Of a stretch of 64,000 nucleotides of DNA, positions 2,121-43,000 are shown one piece after another. The notes under the pieces are model-generated. The model did no database searches and was not told the origin of the DNA. It was given only the letters and a program-made list of their open reading frames with translations. Each line of letters opens with the position of its first letter. The first letter of the stretch is position 1. This stretch comes from a virus (lineage: Duplodnaviria; Heunggongvirae; Uroviricota; Caudoviricetes): the IMG/VR virus record IMGVR_UViG_3300031992_000025, positions 33,932 through 97,931 of that record. One strand, written 5' to 3'. Made by a program: the position numbers and the translations under genes.

Positions 2121-4406
2121 TTGAAAGGAAAGGTGATTATTATTCGTACCTTACTTATTTTACGCGGAGCCCCTGGATGTGGTAAGTCAACATGGGTTAA
2201 AAACAATGGTTTATCCGCCTATACTTTATGTCCAGATGATATTCGTGTTATGTGTGCTTCAAGAGAATTGAAGGCAGATGGTGCTTTTGCTATTGCAAGA
2301 AATCATGCAGTTGAACAAGAAACCTGGAAAATTATTTTAGACTTACTTGAATACAGAATGTCTCGTGGCGAATTAACAGTTTTAGATGCTACGGCTTCAA
2401 AGACAAAAGATATTAAGCAATATAAAGAATTAGCAGACCAATACAGATATAGAATGTATTGCGTTGATTTTACTGATGTTCCTTTAGAAGTTTGTAAGAA
2501 ACAAAACTTGCAACGTCCAGAAGATAAAATTGTTCCAGAACAAGGCATTGAAAATATTTATGCTCGTTTTGCAACACAACCAGTTCCAGCTGGTGTTGAA
2601 GTTATTAAGCCAGATGAATTAGATAAGATTTTAGAAAAACCAATTGATTTATCTTCTTATAGAAAAATCGTTTTTATTGGTGATATTCATGGTTGCTATG
2701 ATACTTTAATGCAATATTTCAAAGATGGCTTAGAAGATGATGTTGAATATATTTTCTTAGGTGATTATATTGACCGTGGAAACCAAAATGCTGAAGTTAT
2801 GAATTGGTTATATTCTATTAAAGATCGCCCAAATGTTTGTTTATTAGAAGGTAATCATGAAAGACACTTACAAGCTTATGGTATGGGCTATGAAGCCAAA
2901 TCCAAAGAGTTTGAAGAAAAAACAAAAGGTCAATTAATTTTAGGTGGCTTTGATGAGAAAAAAGCTAGAATTTTCTATCGAAAGCTTCGTCAAATGTCCC
3001 ATTTTACTTATAATGGTATTGAAGTTTTAGCAACTCATGGCGGTATTCCATGTATGCGTGCAAATCTTACTTATATTCCTACATGCGCTTTCATTAATGG
3101 CGTTGGTGAATATAATGACTATCAAGATGTCGCTGATACTTGGATGAAAGAAACTGCTGAAAATCAATATCAAGTTCATGGCCATCGTAATACTGCACAA
3201 GACCCAGTTCAATTAGCTGACAGAGTTTTTAACTTAGAAGGTGAAGTTGAATTTGGTGGTAAATTAAGAATTGTTGAATTAACTTCTGATACTTTTAATG
3301 GCTGGGCTTTTGGTCATCCAGAAGCTGGTTTAGTTACTGGAACAAGATGGAATGTTATTGAGTTATCTAACTGTCAACCAATTACAGAAGATTTTAATGT
3401 TGAAAAGGCTCCTGTTGAAACCGTTGAACAAGCAGTTGAATATTTAAGAAACAATCAATTTGTCAAAGAAAAGAAATTAGGTAATGGTATTTCATCTTTC
3501 AACTTTACTCGTGAAGCTTTCTATTCTGCTAACTGGACAAGACAAACAGTTTTAGCACGCGGTTTATTTATCGATACAGACAATAATAAGATTATGGCGC
3601 GTTCATATGAAAAATTCTTCCGTATCAATGAAGTTCGTGAGACTGAAATGGTTGCTTTAAAGAATAGATTGAAGTTTCCAGTCAAAGCCTATGTTAAAGA
3701 AAATGGTTTTTTAGGTATTGTCTCTTATAACTATAAGACTGATGATTTATTTGTTGCAACTAAGTCTTCTGATAAGGGTGACTGTGCAGATTATTTTAAC
3801 AAAATGCTTGAACCATATAGAGAAAAGCTATTACATCTATTAAGAGCTATTTATAACTCCGAAGATCCAGATACTTATTCATTCGTCTTTGAGTGCGTCG
3901 ACCAAGAAAACGACCCACACATCATTAAATATGATAAGAGTGATATTTATTTGTTAGATGTAGTTTACAATAGATTAGACTTTGAGACTCTTCCATATTG
4001 GAGATTGAAAGAATTAGCTGAAACTCTTGGCTGTAAAGTCAAGACAGAGGCTTATACAATCAAAGATTTTGATGAGTTCAGAGATTTAGTAAATAGAGCT
4101 GAAGATGAAGATTATAAGTATAATGGAAATTATATTGAAGGTTATGTCTTCGTTGACCAAAATGGCTTTATGACTAAATTAAAGACAGGTTATTACAATT
4201 TCTGGAAACATATGAGAAGTGTTGCTGATTCAACTTTAAGAAGTGGTTCATATAGAAGAATGGGCTCATTACTTACAGTCCAAGGTAATCAATTTGCAGC
4301 CTTCTGTAAAGAGTGTTTTAACAAAGATAGAATTAAAGAAACAAAGTCTTACCCTTACAAAACTGACATTATTTCGTTAAGAGAAAAGTTCCTATTTAAC
4401 AAATAA
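2121..4406 (+). CDS. pnkp: Pnkp-like RNA repair enzyme: polynucleotide kinase / calcineurin-type phosphatase / ATP-dependent RNA ligase fusion
   Basis: N-terminal P-loop (ILRGAPGCGKST, Walker B LTVLD). Central GDIHG / GDYIDRG / GNHE phosphatase motifs as in lambda-phosphatase and Clostridium thermocellum Pnkp. C-terminal nucleotidyltransferase-like segment with KENGFLG (KxNG lysine motif). Starts at TTG/GTG after AGGAAAG RBS. No TGA codons. Confidence 0.75.
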   Translation: MKGKVIIIRTLLILRGAPGCGKSTWVKNNGLSAYTLCPDDIRVMCASRELKADGAFAIARNHAVEQETWKIILDLLEYRMSRGELTVLDATASKTKDIKQYKELADQYRYRMYCVDFTDVPLEVCKKQNLQRPEDKIVPEQGIENIYARFATQPVPAGVEVIKPDELDKILEKPIDLSSYRKIVFIGDIHGCYDTLMQYFKDGLEDDVEYIFLGDYIDRGNQNAEVMNWLYSIKDRPNVCLLEGNHERHLQAYGMGYEAKSKEFEEKTKGQLILGGFDEKKARIFYRKLRQMSHFTYNGIEVLATHGGIPCMRANLTYIPTCAFINGVGEYNDYQDVADTWMKETAENQYQVHGHRNTAQDPVQLADRVFNLEGEVEFGGKLRIVELTSDTFNGWAFGHPEAGLVTGTRWNVIELSNCQPITEDFNVEKAPVETVEQAVEYLRNNQFVKEKKLGNGISSFNFTREAFYSANWTRQTVLARGLFIDTDNNKIMARSYEKFFRINEVRETEMVALKNRLKFPVKAYVKENGFLGIVSYNYKTDDLFVATKSSDKGDCADYFNKMLEPYREKLLHLLRAIYNSEDPDTYSFVFECVDQENDPHIIKYDKSDIYLLDVVYNRLDFETLPYWRLKELAETLGCKVKTEAYTIKDFDEFRDLVNRAEDEDYKYNGNYIEGYVFVDQNGFMTKLKTGYYNFWKHMRSVADSTLRSGSYRRMGSLLTVQGNQFAAFCKECFNKDRIKETKSYPYKTDIISLREKFLFNK

Positions 4407-4427: not shown

Positions 4428-4459
4428 AAGGGCTGAGAATAAAACTTGGCCCTTTTATT
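4428..4459 (+). terminator. rho-independent terminator
   Basis: AAGGGC-TGAGAATAAAACTT-GGCCCTT-TTATT. Confidence 0.6.
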
Positions 4460-4491
4460 GTATAATATTATATATTTGGAGGTAATTTTTT

Positions 4492-5691: not shown

Positions 5692-7725
5692 GTGACAAGA
5701 AATCAATTCAATGCACTTAGTGCAACCACAATCCCATCCAACATCCACGTCAATGCACAAACTATTTTGATTGCAAGACACTATCTTTTAGCTGTTCCAC
5801 AAGAAGTGGATCCAGAATTAAAGGTTAGAACTGCTTATTTAAACGCATATCTTTTCTCTAATTTTGGTATCGTAGTTGATAGACCAGAACTTTTAACCGA
5901 AACTCATGTTGAGGAAATTTCTGATTTATTCAAACTCAATGTCCCAGCTTCTTTCTATAAGAACCCACAAGATACTAAGTATTACACTTCTGGTGAGCTT
6001 TTTGTTAACCAAGTTTTAGCTTACTTCTTGGCTTATGGTGAAGAAGATTCTTCTATTGATGTTTTTGATAAGAAATTACCAGAATATCCAGAAGGTAAAG
6101 AAATCAAGCTTCGTGAATTCAAAATTCTTTTTGCTGACGAAGCAGATGAAGTTTTAGCTAATATCACTAAATCTTATGCTGATTACAAACGTCCATGGTC
6201 TTTAGACGAAGAAAATGAATTTGTCTACTTATATGAACATGGCTATTACAGAGATTTTGATATTCTTTGTGCTGACAATGCCATTACCATGATTAAGAAA
6301 GATGCTAACTTTGCTCGTTTCTTATACAAGAAAGACTTAGTTAAGATTTCTGTCGCTGCTTGTGGCGAAAAGTCTAAGCTTGTTTTAGACAAAGATACCG
6401 CTGATTTAATTAGAAAGGCTATTCCTTTCGTTAAAGACTGCCCAATGTCTAAGAAACAAGCTAAATACTTTAATACTTTAATTAATAAGGTTGGCGCGCA
6501 AGGCAAAGTTAAACTTGCTACTAATGAACGTTCACCTTATGCTAGAGCTCAAGCTTTACTTGACAAAGGCGATGTTTTAGGCGCTGCTAAAGTTTATGCT
6601 GCTAACGGTTCTTTATTTGAAAGAAATATCAAAATGTTAATTTCTCGTGCGAACCCAGCAGAAGCTTTAGAAATCATCAAAATGATTCCAGCTAAGAACC
6701 CAATCGCTTTATATCAATTTGTTACCAATTTGATGGAAGATAATGGCGGAAACCGTACTTTCACTTTCACCAAAAACAGATTGGTCAAAAAGCACATTGA
6801 AACTGAATACGAAGCTAAGTGGAGAAAGTCTAGACTTAATGAAGGAACCCGCAAAATGGTTCATGATGCAGTCTTTACTCAAATTGAAGCTGGCTATCGT
6901 GCTCAACCTTCTTTAGGTAAGGTTTATGTTTCACCAGACTTCTTCAAGGTTGGTGTTCCTGTTAATACTTCTGCCTCTGGTAAAGGTATTGATGTCTTAC
7001 CAGCTGGCTCAAGAATTCCAGTTCGTGGTGAATATATTAGAACATTTGTTCACTGGGAACATGCTTTCGATATTGACTCTTCATTAATTATTGTTGACAA
7101 AGACGATAAAATGAGTGTTATGAGCTTCTGGAACTTCTACCAAAAAGAATTCGGTAATGATATCTTATTCTCAGGTGACGTTACTAGCCCAACAGGAACT
7201 GAATATTTTGATATTAATTTACCTGCTCTTAAAAAGAAAGGTATTAAATATATCATTCAATCATTCCATGGCTTCTGCTCTAGCTTAAACAGTGGAGAAA
7301 TCTACTGTGGCTACCAAGATAAGAAAAATATCAATACAAAGGCTTGGGATCCTAAGAACATTGAATTAAAGATTCATGTTAAAGGTGATACCCGTGCATT
7401 TATCTCATTTGGTATTGACTTAGAAACAAATGAAGTAGTTGTCTTAAATATGCTTATTGATTCAGAAAGCCGTATTGTTTCACCAGATATGCGTGCTCTT
7501 GTCGATAAGTATTTAGGTTCAAGCTGTTTAGAGCTTAACATGGGCCTTGTTGCTACATACAGAGCATCTGAAGTTGTTGCAACTCCGGAAGAAGCAGACG
7601 TGGTCTTTGACCCAGCCTATACTTCTGCTGTTGACCCAGAAACAGGCAAAGCAACTCAAAAGGTTGTTAGACCATATGAAGTCGAAAGACTCGTTGGCCT
7701 TGCTTCTGGTGCAGAGCTTAATTAG
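5692..7725 (+). CDS. hypothetical large protein (677 aa), possible partner of Pnkp
   Basis: GTG start after AAGGAGG RBS; long upstream leader containing four motif copies and two promoters; no recognisable motifs by eye. Confidence 0.55.
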   Translation: MTRNQFNALSATTIPSNIHVNAQTILIARHYLLAVPQEVDPELKVRTAYLNAYLFSNFGIVVDRPELLTETHVEEISDLFKLNVPASFYKNPQDTKYYTSGELFVNQVLAYFLAYGEEDSSIDVFDKKLPEYPEGKEIKLREFKILFADEADEVLANITKSYADYKRPWSLDEENEFVYLYEHGYYRDFDILCADNAITMIKKDANFARFLYKKDLVKISVAACGEKSKLVLDKDTADLIRKAIPFVKDCPMSKKQAKYFNTLINKVGAQGKVKLATNERSPYARAQALLDKGDVLGAAKVYAANGSLFERNIKMLISRANPAEALEIIKMIPAKNPIALYQFVTNLMEDNGGNRTFTFTKNRLVKKHIETEYEAKWRKSRLNEGTRKMVHDAVFTQIEAGYRAQPSLGKVYVSPDFFKVGVPVNTSASGKGIDVLPAGSRIPVRGEYIRTFVHWEHAFDIDSSLIIVDKDDKMSVMSFWNFYQKEFGNDILFSGDVTSPTGTEYFDINLPALKKKGIKYIIQSFHGFCSSLNSGEIYCGYQDKKNINTKAWDPKNIELKIHVKGDTRAFISFGIDLETNEVVVLNMLIDSESRIVSPDMRALVDKYLGSSCLELNMGLVATYRASEVVATPEEADVVFDPAYTSAVDPETGKATQKVVRPYEVERLVGLASGAELN

Positions 7726-7885: not shown

Positions 7886-8797
7886 ATGGCTGATACAACT
7901 TATACTGGTTGGAAAAGATGAAATCCAACATCTGAGGAATGAATTGATTTATATACAAATAATACAGTTCCATTCCAACTTAAAGAAAATGAATATTTAA
8001 TTGTTATGGCAACTGACGGCAGCACAACATTTTATTGCTATGAAAATGGCCAATTAAGAAAGTTTACTGGCGGTTCCATTAAAACAATTAAAGATACTAC
8101 CCCGGTTTTATTAGAAGAGCCAAAACCAAAGCAAGAGAGTAAACAACGATCTTCTACTCCAAAATATTCTAAGGGTAAGAATGTTGTAATTACTCCTAGA
8201 AATGAAGAACAAGTTTGTGCTTTTGACTTAATGAAAGACCCAACAAAAACAGTTAAATTGTTAACTGGAACTTGGGGCACAGGTAAAACCTTAATCTTAG
8301 TGTCTGCTGCATTAGAAGCTTTAAAAGCTGGACGTTTTAAAAGAATTGTCTGAATTAGAAATAATGTTGATGTTAAAGATACCAAAGATTTAGGTGCTTT
8401 ACCAGGTGAAGTAATTGATAAATTACTTCCATTCTTAGGACCTTTTATTGATCATGCTGGTGAAAACAGTGTTCGAACTATGCTAAATAAAGGAACTCTT
8501 GTTGTAGAACCTTTGCAATCTTTGAGGGGAAGAAATTTTGATAACACATTAATTATGTGTTCAGAAGCTGAAAACTTAACTAAAGAGCATATACAACTTA
8601 TTATTGCTCGTGCTGCTGAGGGCAGCGAAGTTTGGTTTGATGCTGATAACAGACAACGTGATAAAGCTTCTTTTGAGAAATCAAAAGGAATTGAAACACT
8701 TATTGAAAGATTTGCAGGACAAAAATTATTTGGGTATGTTCATTTAATTAAGTCTGAGCGTTCAAAGACTGCTGCAATGGCAGATTTATTAAATTAG
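7886..8797 (+). CDS. phoH: PhoH-like ATPase (three in-frame TGA read as sense)
   Basis: GTWGTGKT Walker A, LVVEPLQSLRGRNF, DADNRQRD motifs of PhoH family; frame continuous across TGA at about 7918, 7948 and 8351; RBS TAGGAGTTACT-ATG. Confidence 0.75.
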
Positions 8798-8808
8798 GAG
8801 GACTTCTA

Positions 8809-9474
8809 ATGTCACTTGTTATAGCTATAAAAGATAAAAATAGAGTTGTACTTGGTGCAGATAAGCAGGGAAGTGTGAGTGATTTTAAAGATCATTCATG
8901 CACAAAAATTTGGCCTGTTGAGGAGCTTCCAGGTGCCATTATGGGCGGCGTTGGTTCAGCGCGTGCCTCTCAAATTATTCAGTATGCTAATATTATTGAC
9001 AAGAATCTTATTGGCAAAGAAATTTCAACTGATTTTATTATTTGTTCATTAGCTCCAACAATTGCAGCTGGCTTAAAAGCTAACGGATTTAATTTAGAGG
9101 TTAAGGAAAATGAACTTTGCGAACTCATGCCAAATTCATTTATTTTTGCTTATAAAGATAAGGCTTGGATGATCTGGAATGATTTAAGCGTTACTGAAAT
9201 TGATGATTATTTAGCTATTGGCTCAGGTAGTGATGTTGCACGTGGAGCATTATTTGCTACAAAGAAGCATAACCCATTTGAGCGTATTGTTACAGCAATT
9301 GATGCTGCAGCTGAATCAACATTATTTGTTGATGATGATATTGATTTATTAGCAACAGACATATGCGAAGGTGATGATGAAAAAATTGCAAAAGCTTTAG
9401 GTTTTGAGATTAAAGAAGTTAAAGAAGAAATTAAAAAATCTGAGGCTAAAGCAAAAAAAACAAAAAAGAAGTAA
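8809..9474 (+). CDS. HslV/proteasome-beta-like Ntn-hydrolase peptidase
   Basis: MSLVIAIKDKNRVVLGADKQ N-terminus and AIGSGSDVARGAL resemble HslV TTIV...GDGQ and GSG motifs; Ser instead of Thr after Met; Lys-rich tail. Confidence 0.5.
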   Translation: MSLVIAIKDKNRVVLGADKQGSVSDFKDHSCTKIWPVEELPGAIMGGVGSARASQIIQYANIIDKNLIGKEISTDFIICSLAPTIAAGLKANGFNLEVKENELCELMPNSFIFAYKDKAWMIWNDLSVTEIDDYLAIGSGSDVARGALFATKKHNPFERIVTAIDAAAESTLFVDDDIDLLATDICEGDDEKIAKALGFEIKEVKEEIKKSEAKAKKTKKK

Positions 9475-10897: not shown

Positions 10898-11314
10898 ATG
10901 AAAGTTGTATTCTTAGACATTGATGGAGTCCTAAATGATGCAATCACAACAATGGACTTACTGGACGATAAGCCAAAGAAAGAGCATTTAGAGTGTCTAA
11001 AAGCAATTATTGATGCTACAGATGCTAAAATTGTCTTATCTTCAACTTGGCGATTATTCCCAAGCGCAAGAAATGATGTAAAAAATGCTCTAAGAAATGT
11101 CGGTCTTGAATTTATAGACAAAACAAAAGAACTTAGAGATAGAGCATCTGAAATTAAAGAATGGCTAAGTAGACACCCAGAAGTTGAAAAATTTGTAATC
11201 TTAGATGATGAAGAAATTTCTGGAAAGTTCCCTGATAACTTAGTTCAAACGACTTTCTACAGAGGCTTATTGCCAGAACATGTTGAAAAGGCAATAAAAA
11301 TCTTAAATTCTTAA
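10898..11314 (+). CDS. HAD-superfamily phosphatase-like protein
   Basis: VFLDIDGVLND motif I (DxDG), small 138-aa HAD-like fold; RBS AAAGGAACAGT-ATG. Confidence 0.5.
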   Translation: MKVVFLDIDGVLNDAITTMDLLDDKPKKEHLECLKAIIDATDAKIVLSSTWRLFPSARNDVKNALRNVGLEFIDKTKELRDRASEIKEWLSRHPEVEKFVILDDEEISGKFPDNLVQTTFYRGLLPEHVEKAIKILNS

Positions 11315-14094: not shown

Positions 14095-14202
14095 AGAGCC
14101 AATACTTATTTCTTAGCGAGGTAGCTCAGAGGTTAGAGCAGCAGATATTAATCTGAAGGTCGTAGGTTCAAGTCCTTCCCTTGCCAGGCCTAGTTTGGCC
14201 GA
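14095..14202 (+). repeat. bipartite bulged-helix motif copy 5 enclosing an anticodon-less tRNA-like unit
   Basis: AGAGCCAATACTTATTTCT ... GTTTGGCC (GCCAA/TTGGC covariation); insert 14115-14186 has acceptor, D-arm, T-arm and hairpin CAGAT-ATTA-ATCTG instead of anticodon loop. Confidence 0.65.
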
Positions 14203-25229: not shown

Positions 25230-25835
25230 ATGAGAAAAACAATTGATGATATTAAAAAACAAATTTGGGAGAATTCATTGCATACCTGTGAATATTTAAG
25301 TGGTGAAGCAAAACCAGGTAAAAAAATTCATGTAAGATGCATAATTCATAATGAAGAGTTTGATGTAAGTTATGATACTATTCGTAAATCTACTAGAAAA
25401 CATCATATTTGTCCTAAATGTAAAGCTGAAGATGATGCAAAAGATAAGGTAAAACTTATTTGCGATTATTGTGGTAAAGAGTATTATGTTGCAAAAAGTA
25501 AGTCTACTAAATCAGATTATCATTTCTGTTGTAGAGCTTGTAAAGATTCTGCACAAAAGATTAATTCTGGAGAAAAATTTAATGAATTAAGACCAGATCA
25601 TTATGGAACTGGAACAACAACTTACAGAGATGCAGCATTTATAGCTTATCCACATAAATGTGCAATTTGTGGTTGGGCTGAGGATGAAGATGTGCTTGAA
25701 GTTCATCATATTGATGAAAATAGAGCAAATGCAAGTTTAGACAATTTAATTATATTATGTCCAACTTGTCATAGAAAATTATCTATTCATAAATATTATC
25801 TTACTGATGATAGAAAAAGCATTATTAAAAAATAA
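25230..25835 (+). CDS. HNH homing endonuclease with Cys-rich zinc-binding N-terminal region
   Basis: EVHHIDENRANASLDNLIILCPTCH (HNH motif); multiple CxxC pairs. Confidence 0.65.
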   Translation: MRKTIDDIKKQIWENSLHTCEYLSGEAKPGKKIHVRCIIHNEEFDVSYDTIRKSTRKHHICPKCKAEDDAKDKVKLICDYCGKEYYVAKSKSTKSDYHFCCRACKDSAQKINSGEKFNELRPDHYGTGTTTYRDAAFIAYPHKCAICGWAEDEDVLEVHHIDENRANASLDNLIILCPTCHRKLSIHKYYLTDDRKSIIKK

Positions 25836-29042: not shown

Positions 29043-29852
29043 TTGCTAAATTATATGATTATGAAGAATTTAGTTAAAACTGATTTTGATAAGACATATG
29101 ATGAATTAAGCAACTTATCTTTTATTATAAATGAAAAAGAAGATAGCTCAATAGACATTTTAGATGATATTACCTTAGAACAGTTTGGTCAGCCATATGA
29201 AAAATCAAGTATTCAATCCCTTAAAATAAAAAATACTTGTGGAATTTATTTAATTTTTAGAAAAGCAGAAGATGGTAGACTTCATAAATATATTGGGCAA
29301 GCAACTTCTCTACGTGACCGTTTATTGAAGCATCTTTCTAGGGCTGCATATATTATGGAGCATCCTAAGACAGATGAAAACAAAAATTTAGGCATTTATA
29401 AAGATTCGCCAGCTTTACATAGTGCTTTAATTAGACACAATTTTAAGGGGTTTTTCTTTGTTATATTAAAAATTTGTAAGCAAGAACAACTAAATGCATT
29501 AGAACAATTTGCTATTGCACAGTATGGCACTTTTGAAAATAAGTGAGATTATAATTTAACCCCTGGTGGCCAAGAAGGTGTAATTACTCATACAACTGCT
29601 GTTGAGCAATGAATTATAGAATATAAAAAAAGCACCAAAGGGCATGCTGCAGAAGTTAGATGAATTAATTGTAAAAATGTTTATCCAAGTGAAGCTGCTG
29701 CTTCTATTGCTGTTTGTGGTGAAAATAAGCATCAGCAAATAGCAAATGCATTAGCAACACCTGATGGTGAATTTTGACAAAATAAATCTGGTAAGAATAA
29801 ACAATGAGCTGGCTATGGTTGGAGACTACTAGACGAAGTTGCTAGCGAGTAG
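29043..29852 (+). CDS. GIY-YIG homing endonuclease (TGA-recoded C-terminal half)
   Basis: CGIYLIF...KYIGQATSLRDR (GIY-YIG), catalytic E in ALEQFAIAQYG; frame continues through about 6 TGA to TAG at 29850. Confidence 0.7.
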
Positions 29853-30362: not shown

Positions 30363-31157
30363 ATGGACAAAGCTATTATTGAATTTGGAAAACGAATGAA
30401 CCAAGCAGAAGATAAAGTTTTGCTTGTTGAGTATGCAGAGGGTGCTAAGCAAGTTTTAGACCTTGGTGCTGGTACTGGTAAAATTAGTAGAGATATTGCT
30501 GAAAAGTGGGGAGCACATTGTGATGCAGTAGATCTACAGTTTAAAGAGGAGCTCCAAAACTCTGATAAAGTTACTTATTATAGCATGGACATTAATACTT
30601 TTTTAGCTACAACTGAAAAGAAGTATGATTGTGTCATTTTAAGTGCCATTTTACATGAATTATCTAATGAATATTTAGAGCAAATGTTTGTTCATTTACA
30701 AAAAGTATTAGCAACTAATGCTAGAATTCTTATTAGAGAGCCATTTTATGATTATACTTTAGGTCCAGTTAAAGATTTAAATAAATTTGTAGAATTAGTT
30801 CAAAATAAATTACCAGCAGGTAAGACTATTGAATTTGCTCAAACTAGTAAATTACATTCTGGTAAACCATTAGATATTACTGATATGATTGGAATTGATT
30901 GGGTTAATCTATGCTTTACTATTTCTTATGGTGAAGCTAGCTGGGAAAGAGAAAAACATGAGCTAAGATATGCTCGCGATTTAAATTGGTGTAAAGGAAT
31001 TTTTAATTTTTCTCAAAGACCATTTACAGGGTTCCAAGTTTATCCAGTTTTAGATAAAACATATAGACAACATTTTATAAATGTTGGTATTCCTGGTGAA
31101 GCATTTGATTTAATTCAATACACAGGAATGATTGTTATTATTGACTATTCAAAGTAG
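30363..31157 (+). CDS. class I SAM-dependent methyltransferase
   Basis: VLDLGAGTGKIS motif I, acidic motif II CDAVDL, motif IV DCVILSAILHE. Confidence 0.7.
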   Translation: MDKAIIEFGKRMNQAEDKVLLVEYAEGAKQVLDLGAGTGKISRDIAEKWGAHCDAVDLQFKEELQNSDKVTYYSMDINTFLATTEKKYDCVILSAILHELSNEYLEQMFVHLQKVLATNARILIREPFYDYTLGPVKDLNKFVELVQNKLPAGKTIEFAQTSKLHSGKPLDITDMIGIDWVNLCFTISYGEASWEREKHELRYARDLNWCKGIFNFSQRPFTGFQVYPVLDKTYRQHFINVGIPGEAFDLIQYTGMIVIIDYSK

Positions 31158-31228: not shown

Positions 31229-32800
31229 ATGGATGTAGGACAAATTATCGGAATAGTTGTTGGCGGAGTAGCATTACTTCTCTTAATCATCTTTTTTGCT
31301 TGTGCATATACAAAAGCAGGACCAGATGAAGCCATCATGATCTCTGGCGCAGGCAAGAGAAAAATTTTAAGAGGAAAAGCTGGCTGGAGATTGCCATTCT
31401 TACAAAGAAAAGATAAATTATCTCTAAAAGTGTTCCAAGTTGACATTAAGACTCGTGAATCAATTCCAACTAATGAATTTATTAATATTAATGTTGATGG
31501 TGTTGCGAACTTAAAAGTATCTAGTGATCCAGAATTACTTGAAAGAGCCTTTGAAGCTACACTTGGTATGGGCCAAGAGGACTTAATTGAACAAGTCAAG
31601 CAAGTTCTTGAGGGTAATATGCGTGAAATTATCGGTACTGTCGGTATTAGACAACTTGTTCAAGACCGTAAAGGTGTTGCTGAGGCTGTTAAGGAAAATG
31701 TTATTCCAGATATGAGTAAATTAGGCCTCGAATTAGTTAATTTTAATATTCAAAACTTCTCAGACAATAATCATGTCATTGAAAACTTAGGTATTGATAA
31801 TATTTCTCAAATCAGCAAAGAAGCTGCTATTGCTAAAGCAAATGCTGAAAGAGATGTTACTATTGCTCGTGCTGAAGCAGCAAAACAAGCTAATGAAGCT
31901 GAAGTTTTATCAAAAACTGCTATTGTTCAAAAGAACACAGAATATAGTCTTAAAGAGTCTGAATTAAAGATTAAAACAGATACAGCTAAAGCTGATGCTG
32001 ATGCTGCTTATAAAATTCAAGCTCAAAAGAGACAAGAAGAAATTAATACTGCTACAGTTAATGCTGAAATTTCTAAGAGAGAACGTGAAGTTGAACTTGG
32101 AAATAAAGAAGTTGAATTAGCAGAAAAGAAACTTGCTGCTACTGTTAATAAGAAAGCTGATGCAGATAAATATGCTGCAGAAAAAGAAGCTGAAGCAGAA
32201 TTATACAGACGTCAAAAGAAAGCTGAAGCTGAACTTATTGAAGCTCAAAGACAAGCTGAAAAACTTAAAGTTGCCGCTGAAGCTGAAAAACTTGCTCGTA
32301 AAGAAAAAGCTGATGCTGTTGCTATCGAAGCTGAAGCTCAAAGAGTTTCTCGTGCTAAAGCTGCTGAAGCTATTAAGTTAGAAGCTGAAGCTAATAAACA
32401 AGCCGCTCTTGCTGAAGCTGAAGGTATTAAAGCAAAAGGTGAAGCTGAAGCTACTGCAACTAAAGAAAAAGCAGAAGCTATGAAGGCATTCAATGATGCT
32501 GCTACATTAAAACTTGTTTTAGACAGCGGTGTCTTACCAGAGACTGTCAGAGCTTACTCTGAACCAATTGCTGCTGCATTAGGTCAAATTGATGGAATCA
32601 CTATGTATGGTTCTGGCAACGAAGCTAAACTTGTTGAGAACATTCAAAAGTCTGGTGATCAAATCTTTGAGGGCTTAAACAAAACATTAGGCATTGACCT
32701 TAAATCTGTTCTTCTTGGCTATCTTGGACCAAAAGTCTTAGGTGCTGTTGCTGAAACTCCAACTAAGAAAACAAAAGGCAAAACAGATTTAACTGAATAG
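31229..32800 (+). CDS. flotillin/SPFH (band 7) domain protein with long Ala/Glu/Lys coiled-coil
   Basis: N-terminal TM, SPFH core (KTRESIPTNEFININVDGVANLKV...), about 200-aa EA/KA-repeat coiled coil, flotillin-like C-terminus. Confidence 0.7.
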   Translation: MDVGQIIGIVVGGVALLLLIIFFACAYTKAGPDEAIMISGAGKRKILRGKAGWRLPFLQRKDKLSLKVFQVDIKTRESIPTNEFININVDGVANLKVSSDPELLERAFEATLGMGQEDLIEQVKQVLEGNMREIIGTVGIRQLVQDRKGVAEAVKENVIPDMSKLGLELVNFNIQNFSDNNHVIENLGIDNISQISKEAAIAKANAERDVTIARAEAAKQANEAEVLSKTAIVQKNTEYSLKESELKIKTDTAKADADAAYKIQAQKRQEEINTATVNAEISKREREVELGNKEVELAEKKLAATVNKKADADKYAAEKEAEAELYRRQKKAEAELIEAQRQAEKLKVAAEAEKLARKEKADAVAIEAEAQRVSRAKAAEAIKLEAEANKQAALAEAEGIKAKGEAEATATKEKAEAMKAFNDAATLKLVLDSGVLPETVRAYSEPIAAALGQIDGITMYGSGNEAKLVENIQKSGDQIFEGLNKTLGIDLKSVLLGYLGPKVLGAVAETPTKKTKGKTDLTE

Positions 32801-32850: not shown

Positions 32851-32864
32851 TTGTATAATATAAT
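32851..32864 (+). promoter_or_regulatory. extended -10 promoter TTGTATAATATAAT
   Basis: after terminator, upstream of Thg1-like gene. Confidence 0.55.
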
Positions 32865-32877
32865 GAGGTATTTTAAT

Positions 32878-33789
32878 ATGATTAGAGATGCATTAGGCGA
32901 TAGAATGAAAACTTATTATGAGGAAGTTACTAAGACTAGACTTACTCGTAGAACTCCAGTTGTTATTAGGCTAGATGGCTGTCATTTTCATACATTTACG
33001 AGAGGATTTAAAAAGCCATTCGATGAAGTTTTAGTTAAGTCTATGCAAGCAACCATGAAATATCTTTGTGAAAATATTCAAGGTTGTGTTTTAGGTTATA
33101 CTCAGTCTGATGAAATTACTCTTGTTTTAGTTGATTATAAAGAATTGAATACAAGCGCTTGGTTTGATTATGAAGTTCAAAAGATGGTTTCAGTTTCAGC
33201 CGCTCTTGCAACTTATGCTTTTAATAAATATTTTAATGAGTACTATTTAGAAAGTATTGCAGAAAAAGGCGAAGTTGATAAATATGATTTAGCTCATGAT
33301 ACCGCAAGAAGAAAAGGTGCATATTTTGATAGTAGAGTATTCAATATTCCAAAAGAAGAAGTTACTAATTGTGTTCTTTGGAGACAACTTGATGCAGAGA
33401 GAAATTCAATTAATTCATTAGCTCAATCTTTATTTAGCCACAAATCACTTCAAGGTTTAAATCTTAAAGATACGAAAGCTAAAATTGAAACTGAAGCTGG
33501 AATTATTTGGGGAAATTTACCAACAACTCAAAAACGTGGATGTTGCTGTATTAAAAACTATTATTTCTTAGACAAAGAAGGCAATAGATATGAAACAGCT
33601 AATATCTGTACATCAGAAGAAGATGGTACACATTATGTTGATGCCGGATTTAATGAAGAAAAGAATGTCTATGAACTTTATCCTATTGAAGTTACTCTTC
33701 ATAGTGAGTGGGTAGTAGATGAAGATATACCACAATTTAAAGATAGTGGTAGGAATTATATTGAAAACTTAGTTTTTGTTGGTGAATAA
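32878..33789 (+). CDS. Thg1-like protein (tRNA-His guanylyltransferase family 3'-5' nucleotidyltransferase)
   Basis: TPVVIRLDGCHFHTFTRGFKKPFDEVLVKSMQATMKYLCENIQGCVLGYTQSDEITLVL matches Thg1/TLP N-terminal catalytic core (RLDG.NFH.F....KP.D, GQSDE). Confidence 0.75.
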   Translation: MIRDALGDRMKTYYEEVTKTRLTRRTPVVIRLDGCHFHTFTRGFKKPFDEVLVKSMQATMKYLCENIQGCVLGYTQSDEITLVLVDYKELNTSAWFDYEVQKMVSVSAALATYAFNKYFNEYYLESIAEKGEVDKYDLAHDTARRKGAYFDSRVFNIPKEEVTNCVLWRQLDAERNSINSLAQSLFSHKSLQGLNLKDTKAKIETEAGIIWGNLPTTQKRGCCCIKNYYFLDKEGNRYETANICTSEEDGTHYVDAGFNEEKNVYELYPIEVTLHSEWVVDEDIPQFKDSGRNYIENLVFVGE

Positions 33790-33790
33790 T

Positions 33791-34090
33791 ATGACTAAGC
33801 TAGAAAAACTTAATGCTTTAAATGAATTATTAAAAGCTGTTTATGAACAAGGCTGGCGTATTGGTGCTAGCTGGAATAATGATAAATTTAATGAATTGTT
33901 TGACATAAATGGTTATTTAAAAGATGACTTAAAAATTGAGAAGGATCTAAGAGCTAAAATAGATAAACTTCTTATTATGCTTGGCTTTGAAATTAATGAC
34001 TTAATTGTATATACAAAAGAAGATTTGTCTATGCATGAAAATGATTGGGAATATATTGCACCAGTTTTAGAGTTCAAGGAGAAAGAATAA
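33791..34090 (+). CDS. hypothetical protein
   Basis: ATG overlapping previous stop. Confidence 0.4.
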   Translation: MTKLEKLNALNELLKAVYEQGWRIGASWNNDKFNELFDINGYLKDDLKIEKDLRAKIDKLLIMLGFEINDLIVYTKEDLSMHENDWEYIAPVLEFKEKE

Positions 34091-35628: not shown

Positions 35629-35826
35629 ATGAAAAAATTTGTAAAAGTTTTATTAAATATTTTTTATACCATTATAGCTGTTATATTTGGGGTTGCAGGA
35701 GCAATTTGTCTAATACCACTTGCAGCTATTGGTTTAGTAATAAGCTTGCCAGCTTCAATTATAGCTGATATTTGGTTTCCACCAGATATTTATGAAATAG
35801 AAGAAAATAAAGAAAGTGAAGAATAA
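35629..35826 (+). CDS. small membrane protein
   Basis: hydrophobic core FYTIIAVIFGVAGAICLIPLAAIGLVISLPASI. Confidence 0.45.
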   Translation: MKKFVKVLLNIFYTIIAVIFGVAGAICLIPLAAIGLVISLPASIIADIWFPPDIYEIEENKESEE

Positions 35827-36752
35827 TGAAATATTTTATAGTAAGTGATATTCATAGTTTTTATTTAGAGCTAAGAAATGCTTTAAAGCTTGCTGGTTTT
35901 GAAAAAAACAATAAAAATCATACACTGATTGTTTGTGGCGATGTTTTTGATCGTGGACCAGATACAATGGGAGTATATAAATTTTTAACTTCAATTCCAA
36001 AGAAGAGATGTATTCTTGTACAGGGAAACCATGAGCTTTTATATAAAGAGCTTTTAAAAAAGAAATTTCCTGATAGCTATGATTTTAGTAATCATACTGT
36101 TGACACTTTCTGCCAGATAGCTGGTTATAGTGCAGAAATTATGACACCTGAATATTGGTACAAACTTGGGGAAGACCCATATGATAGAATTCAACAAGTC
36201 TGGCAAGAAATATTACGAGAAGTTAATCATAGCCAGGTTACAGACTGGCTATATAGTGACCAATGGAAACCTTGGTATGAAGTAGGAAATTTTATTTTTG
36301 TTCATAGCTTTATTCCACTTAGAAATGCAGACGGTTTACCAAGCTATTATATAAATAATCGTAGGTTTGAATATTTTAAAGACTGGCGTGAAACTGCAAC
36401 AAAGTTTGAATTAGAAGATGCAACCTGGGGGTGCCCATATCAGCAGTATCTTGATGGTTATTTTAAAGAAGAAGCCACTAACGGAAAGGTCCTTGTTTGT
36501 GGACACTGGGTAGTCACAGATTTTCGTAAATATATAAATAATAAAAAATATACTGATGATACAAGTATCTACTATTGGGACAATTTAATTGCTCTTGATT
36601 GTGGTGTTTGGCAATATAAAGGTTCAAAAGAATTTTATCACCCACAAAATGTCCTTGTTATCGATGATAAAGATTTTAAATGTTATGATCAATATAGCAC
36701 AGAGCTTGAGGAAGAGTCATCAGTTCCAAGAATAGAAACAGTTACAGAGTAA
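35826..36752 (+). CDS. calcineurin-like metallophosphoesterase
   Basis: SDIHS...CGDVFDRG...QGNHE motifs. Confidence 0.65.
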   Translation: MKYFIVSDIHSFYLELRNALKLAGFEKNNKNHTLIVCGDVFDRGPDTMGVYKFLTSIPKKRCILVQGNHELLYKELLKKKFPDSYDFSNHTVDTFCQIAGYSAEIMTPEYWYKLGEDPYDRIQQVWQEILREVNHSQVTDWLYSDQWKPWYEVGNFIFVHSFIPLRNADGLPSYYINNRRFEYFKDWRETATKFELEDATWGCPYQQYLDGYFKEEATNGKVLVCGHWVVTDFRKYINNKKYTDDTSIYYWDNLIALDCGVWQYKGSKEFYHPQNVLVIDDKDFKCYDQYSTELEEESSVPRIETVTE

Positions 36753-36810: not shown

Positions 36811-37536
36811 ATGATTAGTGTTTTATATGACATTTTCAAAAAATGGAGTGCCAATGGGTCAGTTTATATTATAAGTGATCCACATTTTTCTGATGCCGAA
36901 AGCTTTGAATTTAGAAAAGCAAGTGGAAAATTACCAGAAGGTATTGAAACTATTGAAGACTTAGATAATTATATTATTAAGAATATTAATGCTGTTGCAA
37001 GTAAAAATGATACATTAATATGTTTGGGCGACGTCGGCAATAAAGAATGCATTACTAAGCTAAAAGCAGGTTATAAAGTTTTATTACTCGGTAACCATGA
37101 CCGTGGTGCAGACCACTATAAAAGAGCAATTGTTGATATTACAGATTTAAAAGCTAACTTAGCTAAATCAGTTAAAATACCAAAAGAGCTTTTTATGGGT
37201 GAACATGAATTAGATAAGCATGTAGTGTTTGATAATAAGCTATTTGATGAAGTTTATTCTGGACCACTAATGATTAGTGATAAGATTATTTTGTCTCATG
37301 AACCAATTATTCCTTGCCCAGACTATTTAGTTAACTTGTGTGGGCATGTTCATGCTAAAAATCATAAATTCAGAGTTGATAAACACCAGTATTATAACTT
37401 CTGTGCAGAAGCAATTGATTATAAGCCTGTCTCTCTTGGAGAGCTTATCAAAGAAGGAATTCTTAGTAAGGTAAAAGATATTCATAGAGTGACAGTTGAC
37501 GGTGCAATAGTCAGAAAAAAGAAAGCTAGCCATTAA
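36811..37536 (+). CDS. calcineurin-like metallophosphoesterase
   Basis: ISDPHFSD...LGDVGNKE...LLGNHDRG motifs. Confidence 0.6.
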   Translation: MISVLYDIFKKWSANGSVYIISDPHFSDAESFEFRKASGKLPEGIETIEDLDNYIIKNINAVASKNDTLICLGDVGNKECITKLKAGYKVLLLGNHDRGADHYKRAIVDITDLKANLAKSVKIPKELFMGEHELDKHVVFDNKLFDEVYSGPLMISDKIILSHEPIIPCPDYLVNLCGHVHAKNHKFRVDKHQYYNFCAEAIDYKPVSLGELIKEGILSKVKDIHRVTVDGAIVRKKKASH

Positions 37537-40091: not shown

Positions 40092-43000
40092 ATGTCAGAG
40101 CTTTACACAAAAACCGTATGGATAAACAATAGAACAAAGCTTAGTGCCAAAAACATGAACCATATTGAAGATGGTCTTGAAAGAGTGGCAGAAGCAGTAG
40201 AAGAAATAGAAGAAAGTGGAGTTTCACATACTCACAGAAATAAAGCTATTTTAGACCAAATAACTGCACCATTTACTACTGTATTAGAAAATAAATACGA
40301 TAGTTATGCAAATAAATCAACTGTCACTGTAAGTAAATCAGGTGAGTCTGAAGTTAGTGTTCAATATATTACAATTGATGGTGTTGAATACAAACTTGCT
40401 GGTGATATTGCAGAAAATTACGAAGAAAAATATGATGTTTCTTTAAATACAATTACTGAAACAGGCGTTTATAAAATTATTGATGCTAGAGATGTTCCAG
40501 AAGGAACTTCTACATCTGGTATTTTAAATGCAACAAAGTTATCAAATGGACAAACAGCTCAAGATTGGTTATCAACAACTAATCGTGCTGTTAGAATTTT
40601 TGATGAAAGTGCTATTGGTTTAAAATTCTATGTTAATGATGAATTAGTTTCACAAGGTGAAGTATTATTACCAGCTGGCGGGACTTATGAATTACAAGGT
40701 GATTTATTAGGTCATATTATAATTGGTGAAAGTGAAGCAGCTGTTAATAATCGTACAAAAATTATTCTTAATGGTGTTAATATTCAATCTTATGATTATG
40801 ATTCATGTATTGAATACACTCCAATTGATAGTAAGGTTGTCATTGAAGTTGCTGATAATTCTAAAAACTATATTGTTGTTGGAACAGATGGTGAAAAAGA
40901 CGATGATGATTTAGGCGCTATTCATTCTGAGAATAATTTAGTTTTAACAGGTGTTGGTTATTTAACAGTTATTAATACTAAAGGCCATGGCATTAAAGCT
41001 TCTGAATTAGTTATTACTGGTAACCCATATGTTTACTTACGTACAAATCATGATGCTGTTCATGGCGGTAAATTATTAAAGATTGCTGGTGGTTATTTTG
41101 AAGTTGATGGAGCTAATGATGCATTTAGTGGTTCAGCTGGTTCATCTGATAATGGCAGAGTATTAATTCTTGGTGGTACTTATGTAATTAATGCTTGTAA
41201 TGAAGCAGCATTTGAAGGCAAGTCTGCCAATGGTATTAAGAGAGTTTTAAATGCTAACATTACATTTGGCGCTGGTGTTAATAAATTATTTAATGCAAGC
41301 AATGCAAATGAAGGTTTTGAATTTAAAGTATTTGAAGGTTTAAATACAATTGTTAATAATTCTGGTAAAGCAGATCCTACAACTGTAAGTCTAAAGACAC
41401 TTGTTGGTCCAGCTAGATTAACTATTGGAACTGGCGTAGAAGCTACTGTTATTCCAACAGACGAAGCTGAAGTTGTAATTGCACCAGTTGAAGATACTGA
41501 ATATGTTGCAAGCGGTGACTGGACAGGCAAAAAACTTATTTCAAATCCAGCTGCAGGTATTAAAGTTGATATTGTTTTAGAAGATTTCTATCATGAGCCT
41601 ACTGAATTACAAGATGGTTTTGAACCAGCACCATTTATTCAACATAATGGCGATAAACGTATTAAATTCTCAGTTGATGAATTTAAATTAGCTTATATTG
41701 CACATGAAGGAGCAGCTGCCATTTTAACTTCAAAAAATATTCAAGTTAAAGGCAAAGGCGACTTATTTATTAAATGTACTAATGGTGAGGCTATTACTGC
41801 CCCAAATGGCTACACTGTTTTAGGTGGAGACGGTATTAGAAATATTACAAATTGTGCTTCTGGTATTACAACAGCTAGTTTACGTTTAGGGGAAGACCCA
41901 GATGATGTTGATGAAAAATTTGATTCAACTCCAAGCAAACGTGGGGTAAGTGAAACAGCTATTTATATTATTAATAATGCTAGTAATGAACAAAATAAAG
42001 ATATTACGCTTACTACTACTGAACAATTAATTACATATGAAAATCAAGTTATTGCTACTCAATATATGACAGGTGCAGCAATTTTAGGTAATATTGTAAG
42101 AGCTGATTATGAAAGTTTATTAGTTGTTCAATCTGGTGAAGTTTTGCAAAAAACAGGAAATTCATATACTAATACTGCATTAGTCTATGTACAAACTGCT
42201 TTAATTGACATTGAAGGCGATGCCCATGTTTATGAAGAGCCATCTATTGAAGAATTAGATACAGAAGCTCCTGATATTGAAAGTTCAGCTAGCGCTTCTT
42301 GGGTTGTATACCACGGTGATGGCTACTCTAAAGAAGATGCAGATGAGAAATTTGTTGCTAAATCAACATATAATGCATTAGTTAATGATTTAGATGCTCG
42401 TGCACCAAGAAAAATTGATATTATCAATTTCTTAGCTGATGACGACGGAATTCCATTAAAGCCAAAGACAAAAGATCCTCATCCTGGCACATATGCTGAT
42501 GGTAAAATTGATGCAATTGAAATTTTTAGATATGCATGTCCAGAACAAATTGATATTGATAGCACTATTGACCAAAATGGTGATCCAGTACTAGAGCCAG
42601 AAACACATAGCAGCTACATGAAAGATGGCCGTCAAATTTATGCTAGAGACGGTGATTCTGGTTATCCAGAAATTGATGGAACAGGCCAATTTAATTTTAG
42701 GCCAGTTTGAAATACAGAGGGTTATGTTTTAACTCCAATTGTCACAGATTTTTCTGGTAAACCACATGATGGTAATGAAAAACTTCCAGATAAATCTCCA
42801 AATCCAAATTATAATAAATGTTATAATAAATTTAAAACACCTTGGTTAACAGGTATTCCAGGAGTTCATAGATTCACAAAAGTTTGTAAAGACATTAAAA
42901 TTGATTTTGAAGCTGTTGAGGAAGCAAGTTTACCAAGAAATACAATTACTTGGAATATAGTTGCGCCAGATGGTTATTTAGAAACTAATATTCCGTCAGT

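Follow-up and report, generated by a model that had tools for sequence, protein, structure and literature searches.

The stretch of viral DNA considered here, referred to throughout as the window, comprises 64,000 nucleotides (positions 33,932 to 97,931) of the IMG/VR record IMGVR_UViG_3300031992_000025, a member of the Caudoviricetes. Near its start, on the plus strand at 2121-4406, lies an open reading frame (ORF) of 761 amino acids (aa), counted from the first TTG in the ORF listing, in which a kinase, a phosphatase and a ligase are fused into a single polypeptide. The original prediction, made by a model from the nucleotide sequence, had described this ORF as a Pnkp-like trifunctional RNA repair enzyme, and both the ORF and all of the motifs cited for it were recovered (GAPGCGKST at aa 16-24, GDIHG at 187-191, GDYIDRG at 214-220, GNHE at 244-247 and KENG at 526-529). 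The proposed division into three domains was likewise borne out by Pfam, in which AAA_33 (aa 11-150, 2.3e-17), Metallophos (aa 182-359, 1.6e-17) and RNA_lig_T4_1 (aa 479-692, 3.9e-38) all exceed their gathering scores, a three-domain match that is far beyond chance. Initiation at GTG 2133 would give a protein of 757 aa; because a strong Shine-Dalgarno sequence, GAAAGGAAAG, is found at 2123-2132 and the database protein P0001, which is 100% identical to the fusion protein, has this same length of 757 aa, GTG 2133 is probably the true start.

The healing half of the protein is made up of the kinase and the phosphatase. The polynucleotide 5'-kinase domain (AAA_33; 2151-2570, plus strand) contains the P-loop residues K22 and S23 together with D39, the predicted general base, R42 and the lid residue R132. 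Its nearest solved relative is the kinase of Clostridium thermocellum Pnkp (CthPnkp; structure 4gp7), identified both by phmmer (6.8e-5) and by Foldseek (TMt 0.72). In the phmmer alignment K22, S23, D39 and R42 fall on the P-loop Lys and Ser, the catalytic Asp and the Arg of 4gp7, the latter two of which we take to be Asp38 and Arg41 in CthPnkp numbering, and all four, as well as R132, are invariant in 33 relatives. The ATP-motif residue of the CthPnkp kinase is K21 (PMC1920235). The second domain, a binuclear metallophosphoesterase predicted to act as a 2',3'-phosphatase and cyclic phosphodiesterase (aa 182-387; 2664-3281, plus strand), was delimited by Metallophos and by the alignment to TIGR04075, which reaches aa 383; its fold matches lambda phosphatase and PP5 in Foldseek comparisons, and its key residues are D188, H190, D215, R219, N245, H246, H306 and H355. 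Nine residues are essential in the CthPnkp phosphatase (Asp187, His189, Asp233, Arg237, Asn263, His264, His323, His376 and Asp392; PMC3675462), and eight of these map to invariant motif residues of the fusion protein. A beta-rich extension and linker follows, as judged by alignment (aa 388-439; 3282-3437, plus strand), where the confidence of the AlphaFold2 (AF2) model is low to medium. Within this segment between phosphatase and ligase, the metagenomic clade carries an inserted stretch, DTFNGWAFGHPE (3339-3374, aa 407-418), some 12 residues long, which according to the alignment is missing from the homologs of Bacillus, Staphylococcus and Alicyclobacillus phages.

The sealing half consists of a ligase adenylyltransferase module (aa 440-692; 3438-4196, plus strand), assigned through PF09511 and alignments to Trl1-LIG, and a helical C-terminal sub-domain (aa 693-761; 4197-4403, plus strand) homologous to the Trl1 C-domain, in which K696 and R699 take the places of Trl1 R334 and R337. 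Searches of Protein Data Bank (PDB) sequences with the ligase region, on its own or in a profile built from 11 relatives, retrieved nothing but fungal Trl1 tRNA ligases (2.5e-14 to 7e-13), and neither the CthPnkp ligase nor T4 Rnl1 appeared even at E<=10. The profile alignment spans Trl1 residues 97 to 394 and therefore extends through the helical C-domain that defines the Trl1 'Rnl6' clade (PMC6379707; PMC11404444). Foldseek comparison of the full-length model ranked Trl1-LIG ahead of T4 Rnl1, with no Pnkp-system ligase in the top 50. The Trl1 structures (PDB 6n0t, 6n67, 8rbj and 9qw7) date from 2019 onward, later than the AF2 training cut-off, and similarity of the model to the Trl1 C-domain is therefore unlikely to have been memorised.

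We assigned the individual residues of the ligase by HMMER alignment to CthTrl1, taking their roles from PMC6379707. R480 and K498/F499 correspond to CthTrl1 R99 and K120/F121, which make contacts to the gamma-phosphate of ATP and to adenine; K526, the KENG lysine singled out in the original prediction, aligns with the motif I nucleophile K148 and is the predicted adenylylated lysine. The motif I Asn is N528 (N150), followed by K548 in motif Ia (K169), E591 in motif III (E218), E673 of the E673-G674 pair in motif IV (E300) and K686/K688 in motif V (K323/K325). The C-terminal third of the protein is thus related to nucleotidyltransferases and carries the lysine motif, as had been proposed. With Trl1 LIG the fusion ligase therefore shares the KxNG nucleophile, motifs Ia, III, IV and V, the Arg, Lys and Phe of an Rnl1-like N-sub-domain, and the helical C-domain, whereas with T4 Rnl1 the adenylyltransferase core is what the two have in common: an hhalign comparison with T4 Rnl1 covers this core only and ends directly after motif V, T4 Rnl1 has an Arg instead of a His after motif III, its C-domain does not align, and the T4 Rnl1 family model TIGR02308 gives 39.5 bits, its cut-off being 242. 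The T4 repair system also differs in being divided between two proteins, Pnkp and Rnl1 (gene 63), and its phosphatase is a DxDxT acylphosphatase rather than a metallophosphoesterase (PMC3592404).

Despite this kinship the fusion protein is not a Trl1, since its architecture differs. Fungal Trl1 has its ligase at the N-terminus, joined to a GTP-dependent kinase and a 2H cyclic phosphodiesterase; the ligase of the fusion protein lies at the C-terminus, behind a Pnkp-type kinase and a metallophosphoesterase, and Pfam and NCBIfam scans found no 2H domain in the protein. Identity to the Trl1 ligase is only about 24%, and the position of R334 is occupied by Lys. The fusion protein is a hybrid form of heal-and-seal enzymes already known, and its two halves are of different ancestry.

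The resemblance to bacterial Pnkp, on which the original prediction was built, stands for the domain order and for the healing half, but not for the ligase half, which is Trl1-like in both sequence and fold; the proposed structural comparison with CthPnkp gave the same division, with the kinase matching 4gp7 and no Pnkp counterpart of the ligase among the top 50 Foldseek hits. Were the protein a genuine Pnkp ortholog, it would need a Hen1-like partner for ligation and for methylation of the junction. CthPnkp and the fusion protein do share an identical order of kinase, binuclear metallophosphoesterase and ligase, the CthPnkp kinase is the nearest relative of the kinase domain, the phosphatase motifs GDxHG, GDxxDRG, GNHE, HGG and GH are common to both, and a methyltransferase is present elsewhere in the window. 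TIGR04075 (bacter_Pnkp) is indeed the top NCBIfam hit, but it covers aa 10-383 only and at 71.4 bits falls short of its cut-off of 750. For bona fide Pnkp loci, which are found in Bacteroidota, Acidobacteriota and other phyla, the match is confined to residues ~6-378, with an identity of 22-27%. The ligase of bacterial Pnkp needs the N-domain of Hen1 to complete its active site, and the fusion ligase is not of this type. Consistent with this, Pfam and NCBIfam scans of ORFs in the 64-kb window gave zero matches to a Hen1 model, whether among the neighbours of the fusion gene, in the 677-aa ORF at 5692-7725 or in the methyltransferase at 30363-31157, and we rejected a Hen1 partner for the fusion gene. 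The former had been described as devoid of a recognisable methyltransferase motif and has no Pfam domain; the latter is an S-adenosylmethionine methyltransferase, as had been stated, although it matches generic class-I models only and lies 26 kb from the fusion gene. Nor is a Hen1 gene adjacent to the homologs on the chromosomes of Veillonella parvula and Coprococcus aceti. As Hen1 completes a different kind of ligase and the fusion ligase has a C-terminal substrate domain of its own, the search for a Hen1 partner becomes moot and its negative outcome is explained. With a Pnkp-type ligase, a TIGR04075 score reaching the cut-off and a Hen1 partner all lacking, the fusion protein lies outside the Pnkp-Hen1 family; that it is nonetheless a Pnkp ortholog is already contradicted by the tests made, and we regard this as highly improbable.

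The fusion protein belongs to a family that has already been catalogued as PHROG 8238, whose members have the same three domains and which appears to be uncharacterised. The match to phrog_8238, annotated 'RNA ligase', is full-length (1.6e-199), aligning aa 9-758 with positions 2-730 of the 737 in the profile, and members include ORF008 of Staphylococcus phage Twort as well as proteins of Sep1-like and K-like myophages, SPbeta-like Bacillus phages and Alicyclobacillus phage KKP_3916. Records of cultured phages covering at least 80% of the fusion protein number 113, at identities of 35-42%, and their annotations disagree, naming the product an RNA ligase, polynucleotide kinase, tRNA ligase, Ser/Thr phosphatase or hypothetical protein; the same three-domain architecture is present in at least 120 metagenomic proteins. 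A comparison of the phage with cultured phages at the nucleotide level gave no match. The catalytic residues are invariant in 37 metagenomic relatives of 63-95% identity and in 33 phage and cellular relatives, and they are kept at ~40% identity in Twort ORF008 and in the SPbeta-like and Alicyclobacillus phage homologs. This invariance reflects purifying selection. In species-representative genomes, relatives that match over the full length come from Lachnospiraceae, Bacilli, Veillonella and Succinivibrionaceae. Those of V. parvula (locus L036, 4007-6211) and C. aceti (locus L014, 4001-6217) are full-length chromosomal singletons that lie outside prophages among housekeeping genes (polA, coaE, NUDIX, amylase and TetR genes), and the family thus has both viral and cellular members.

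Taken together, these results make it likely that the fusion protein is an autonomous heal-and-seal RNA repair enzyme in which Pnkp-type healing is coupled to a ligase of the Rnl1/Trl1 lineage, and that it acts most probably on nuclease-cut tRNA; all of its enzymatic activities, its substrate and its counter-defence role are what we infer from these comparisons. In the proposed sequence of reactions, the P-loop kinase would phosphorylate the 5'-OH end, and the binuclear metallophosphoesterase, presumably Mn-dependent, would open the 2',3'-cyclic phosphate and then take the phosphate off. The ATP-dependent ligase would form a K526-AMP intermediate, adenylylate the 5'-phosphate and join the ends, with its own helical C-domain positioning the RNA 3' end such that a Hen1-like activator would be unneeded. 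Autonomy is supported by the lack of a Hen1-like gene among the scanned window ORFs and by the singleton genes of Veillonella and Coprococcus. The most likely substrates would be tRNAs, both those of the host and the 38 encoded in the window, whose anticodon loops have been cleaved by defence nucleases of the host. This proposal draws on analogy with T4 Pnkp and Rnl1 acting against PrrC and on surveys of phage RNA repair (PMC7824862); the annotation of the T4 record states that these two enzymes repair PrrC-cut tRNA, and healing by CthPnkp supports the sealing of tRNA by T4 Rnl1 (PMC1920235).

Several observations weigh against this interpretation, however. At the level of residues, no position could be matched confidently to CthPnkp Asp392, the invariant E373 in an NLEG motif being a candidate; Trl1 Arg305, which contacts adenine, is Val in the fusion protein, and Trl1 His241, which stacks in motif IIIa, has no obvious counterpart. 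The full-length AF2 model is of only moderate quality (predicted local distance difference test 75.9, predicted TM-score 0.44). We found no biochemistry for the fusion family in the literature, and the 2016 RNA-repair census of Burroughs and Aravind may describe the architecture. The genomic setting also gives reason for caution: in a survey of 80 related IMG/VR viral contigs, covering +/-10 kb around the fusion gene, tRNA genes were found in only 29 neighbourhoods, with five or more in 5 of the 80. A tRNA-rich context was accordingly rejected as a general rule for the fusion gene, and possession of the enzyme does not depend on a genome rich in tRNA genes.

The bacterial copies, being chromosomal, further imply that the role of the enzyme need not be counter-defence, and one may postulate routine RNA maturation or maintenance instead, either of the unusual tRNAs of the phage or, in cells, of RNA breaks in general. 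The position of the V. parvula and C. aceti genes among housekeeping genes speaks for such a role, as do the 38 tRNA genes of the window, the aberrant form of one tRNA-like gene and the recurrence of a Thg1-like tRNA 5'-end repair enzyme as a neighbour. No intron-containing or split tRNA needing protein ligation was detected in the window, however, most related phage neighbourhoods have no tRNA genes, and the well-studied phage heal-and-seal systems all serve counter-defence (T4 annotation; jumbo-phage survey, PMC7824862). We therefore consider routine maintenance improbable as the main role.

A separate question concerns the chemistry of the 3' end that is sealed. Fungal LIG requires a terminal 2'-PO4, which is bound by a His-Arg-Arg triad that also enforces this requirement (PMC11404444; PMC12440814) and that one of the two groups describing it has called unique to the Trl1 clade. 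Two independent HMMER alignments place H600, K696 and R699 of the fusion protein at the triad positions His227, Arg334 and Arg337; these three residues and N528, at Asn150, are invariant in 29-30 of 30 relatives. On this basis the ligase might prefer or require 3'-OH/2'-PO4 ends, capturing the 2'-phosphomonoester made by the phosphoesterase and leaving a 2'-phosphate at the junction, which would either be removed by another enzyme or persist and block re-cleavage as Hen1 methylation does. The Trl1-type C-domain of the fusion ligase is in keeping with such a route, as is the fact that T4 Rnl1 has an Arg in place of the His after motif III and does not align past motif V. The healing half could in principle supply the substrate: wild-type CthPnkp converts the cyclic phosphate to a 2'-phosphomonoester before removing it, and a mutant confined to the first step feeds yeast ligase, not T4 Rnl1 (PMC1920235), so that a Pnkp-type phosphoesterase joined to a Trl1-like phosphate pocket could take the Trl1 route.

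Other evidence points away from this chemistry. Mutation of H189 or R237 in CthPnkp abolishes the monoesterase step (PMC3675462), and the equivalent residues H190 and R219 are both kept in the fusion protein, whose phosphatase is therefore expected to proceed to a 2'-OH end. The residue at position 334 is Lys instead of Arg, and the equivalence of the triad residues derives from sequence alignments rather than from superposition of structures. Furthermore, plant Trl1 requires a 2'-PO4 while having neither arginine (PMC12440814), so that the triad is not a reliable predictor of this requirement. Trl1-like chemistry would also predict co-occurrence with Tpt1/KptA, which we sought by tblastn with E. 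coli KptA as the query; it was found neither in the window (best E 4.6) nor in any of the 80 viral neighbourhoods (+/-10 kb), leaving the prediction unsupported there. Among phage records, 98 bear KptA and none of these is from a Staphylococcus phage, the largest cultured group that matches the fusion protein. We thus regard sealing of 2'-phosphorylated ends as a rather unlikely, though legitimate, alternative to sealing after complete healing to a 2'-OH, and it is similarly doubtful that the fusion family is the prokaryotic counterpart of eukaryotic Trl1 in chemistry as well as fold, joining 3'-OH/2'-PO4 ends by means of a His-Lys-Arg pocket.

Heal-and-seal RNA repair is a classic phage answer to host defences that cut tRNA, and many new tRNA-targeting defences are being described. 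Phage RNA repair itself is well known; the new and testable part is a Trl1-type ligase that has a supposedly fungus-specific C-domain and phosphate-binding residues, both of which the Trl1 literature treats as restricted to fungi and as an antifungal drug target. Were the Trl1-like chemistry true, 2'-phosphorylated RNA junctions would be formed in bacteria, and these could be the long-missing natural substrate of bacterial Tpt1/KptA, making that puzzle directly testable; alternatively, the junction phosphate could serve as a protective mark analogous to that of Hen1. The origin of the fungal and plant tRNA-splicing ligases would then lie in phage or bacterial RNA repair, and a one-protein RNA repair tool would be at hand. 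If this chemistry is false, what remains is a compact repair enzyme, independent of Hen1, whose family deserves consistent annotation.

The fusion gene is flanked on the plus strand by elements that would isolate it from its neighbours. A consensus scan identified a terminator-like hairpin with an 11-pair stem and a T run at 2069-2094, a pattern match that would close the upstream unit, and motif scans identified a promoter-like extended -10 motif, TTATTGTATAAT, at 2095-2106 and a second terminator-like hairpin just past the stop codon at 4428-4454. As this 3' hairpin is followed by the next copy of TTATTGTATAAT at 4455-4466, the fusion gene looks like a single-gene transcription unit. Allowing at most one mismatch, TTATTGTATAAT occurs 15 times in the window against 2.6 expected, a number reached in 0 of 100 shuffles. 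Thirteen copies are on the plus strand (2095, 4455, 5383, 7773, 9523, 10130, 13237, 20503, 24190, 25201, 28125, 32848 and 36780), none of them beyond the first 37 kb, where TGA is little recoded. Several come after hairpins, and copies also stand upstream of the Thg1-like gene and tRNA clusters. TTATTGTATAAT probably represents a class of early or middle promoters that these genes have in common with the repair gene. Since the fusion gene is in the standard code behind an early-type promoter, its product could act before late-gene translation.

Other RNA-repair genes are found in the window, a setting that favours the proposed repair function of the fusion protein. Its 38 tRNA genes agree with the description of the genome as tRNA-rich, and the Thg1-like gene, encoding a member of a 3'-5' nucleotidyltransferase family, was confirmed with coordinates 32851-33789 on the plus strand (PF04446, 2.3e-31); a homolog is present within +/-10 kb of the fusion gene in 14 of the 80 viral contigs and lies upstream of it in the related locus L002. 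Missing from the original prediction was a HAD_SAK_2 'Swiss Army Knife' RNA-repair phosphatase gene (10898-11314, plus strand; PF18143, 2.5e-28), which sits between tRNA-Phe and tRNA-Ile in the tRNA array and is also found close to the fusion gene in a second related locus, L001. Of four stand-alone metallophosphoesterases that had been proposed, two are solid (3-473, phrog_547, 1.6e-35; 35826-36752, Metallophos, 2.2e-13) and one is weak (36811-37536, PdeM-like, 4.5e-6), a partial confirmation. The 677-aa ORF has a weak likeness to the MXAN_6230/SCO0854 RING-domain family (NF041916, 4.6e-19, aa 280-586) and to phrog_33734. Homologs of 50-65% identity lie a few kb from the fusion gene in L001 and L002, on either side of it and with small ORFs between, and one was found within 10 kb of the fusion gene in only 3 of the 80 viral loci. 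Given this variable side and low frequency, a tight operon of the two genes was rejected, and any link is loose at best.

The tRNA region has further features of its own. A tRNA-like gene called by ARAGORN at 14114-14187 has a two-base 'anticodon' and an anticodon stem CAGA/TCTG around the 6-nt loop TATTAA. An HNH-like ORF (25230-25835) and a GIY-YIG ORF resembling group I intron endonucleases (29043-29546) are located among the tRNA clusters, which suggests the presence of mobile elements in this region.

The second half of the window bears strong signs of a departure from the standard genetic code. Counting single in-frame stop codons with an open frame of 80 codons or more on either side, we found 15 TGA, 0 TAA and 0 TAG in the window. 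Fourteen of these TGA codons are in the region 40089-63434 (first bases at 42708, 45402, 45987, 46524, 46863, 47343, 48825, 51093, 51930, 58677, 59043, 59871, 60931 and 62907), and reading TGA as sense yields ORFs of 1240, 2464 and 799 codons. This is a strong sign of TGA recoding in the late genes, and because of it gene calls by the standard code are fragmented in that half of the window. The pattern fits published gut phages that infect Firmicutes and recode TGA to Trp, chiefly in their late genes. No tRNA with the anticodon TCA is among the 38 tRNAs of the window. The fusion ORF contains zero internal TGA codons and ends in TAA-TAA, so that recoding leaves its boundaries unchanged, and a shift of these boundaries was ruled out. 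The fifteenth site, at 8351, lies in a PhoH-like gene (8006-8797), where ORFs 8006-8353 and 8480-8797 are in the same frame and are split only by the TGA at 8351-8353; the stretch between them reads as PhoH too. A related case is found at 7489-7947 of L001, where a DUF5662 homolog with two in-frame TGA codons has been called as two tiny genes, and one of these TGA codons aligns with a Trp in the window copy at 660-1136 (EF*DDFW versus EFWNDFW).

Lastly, the early region of the window encodes a proteasome/HslV-like ORF (8809-9474; PF00227, a weak match) and a 523-aa SPFH/flotillin-like protein (31229-32800), both of which are unusual cargo for a phage.

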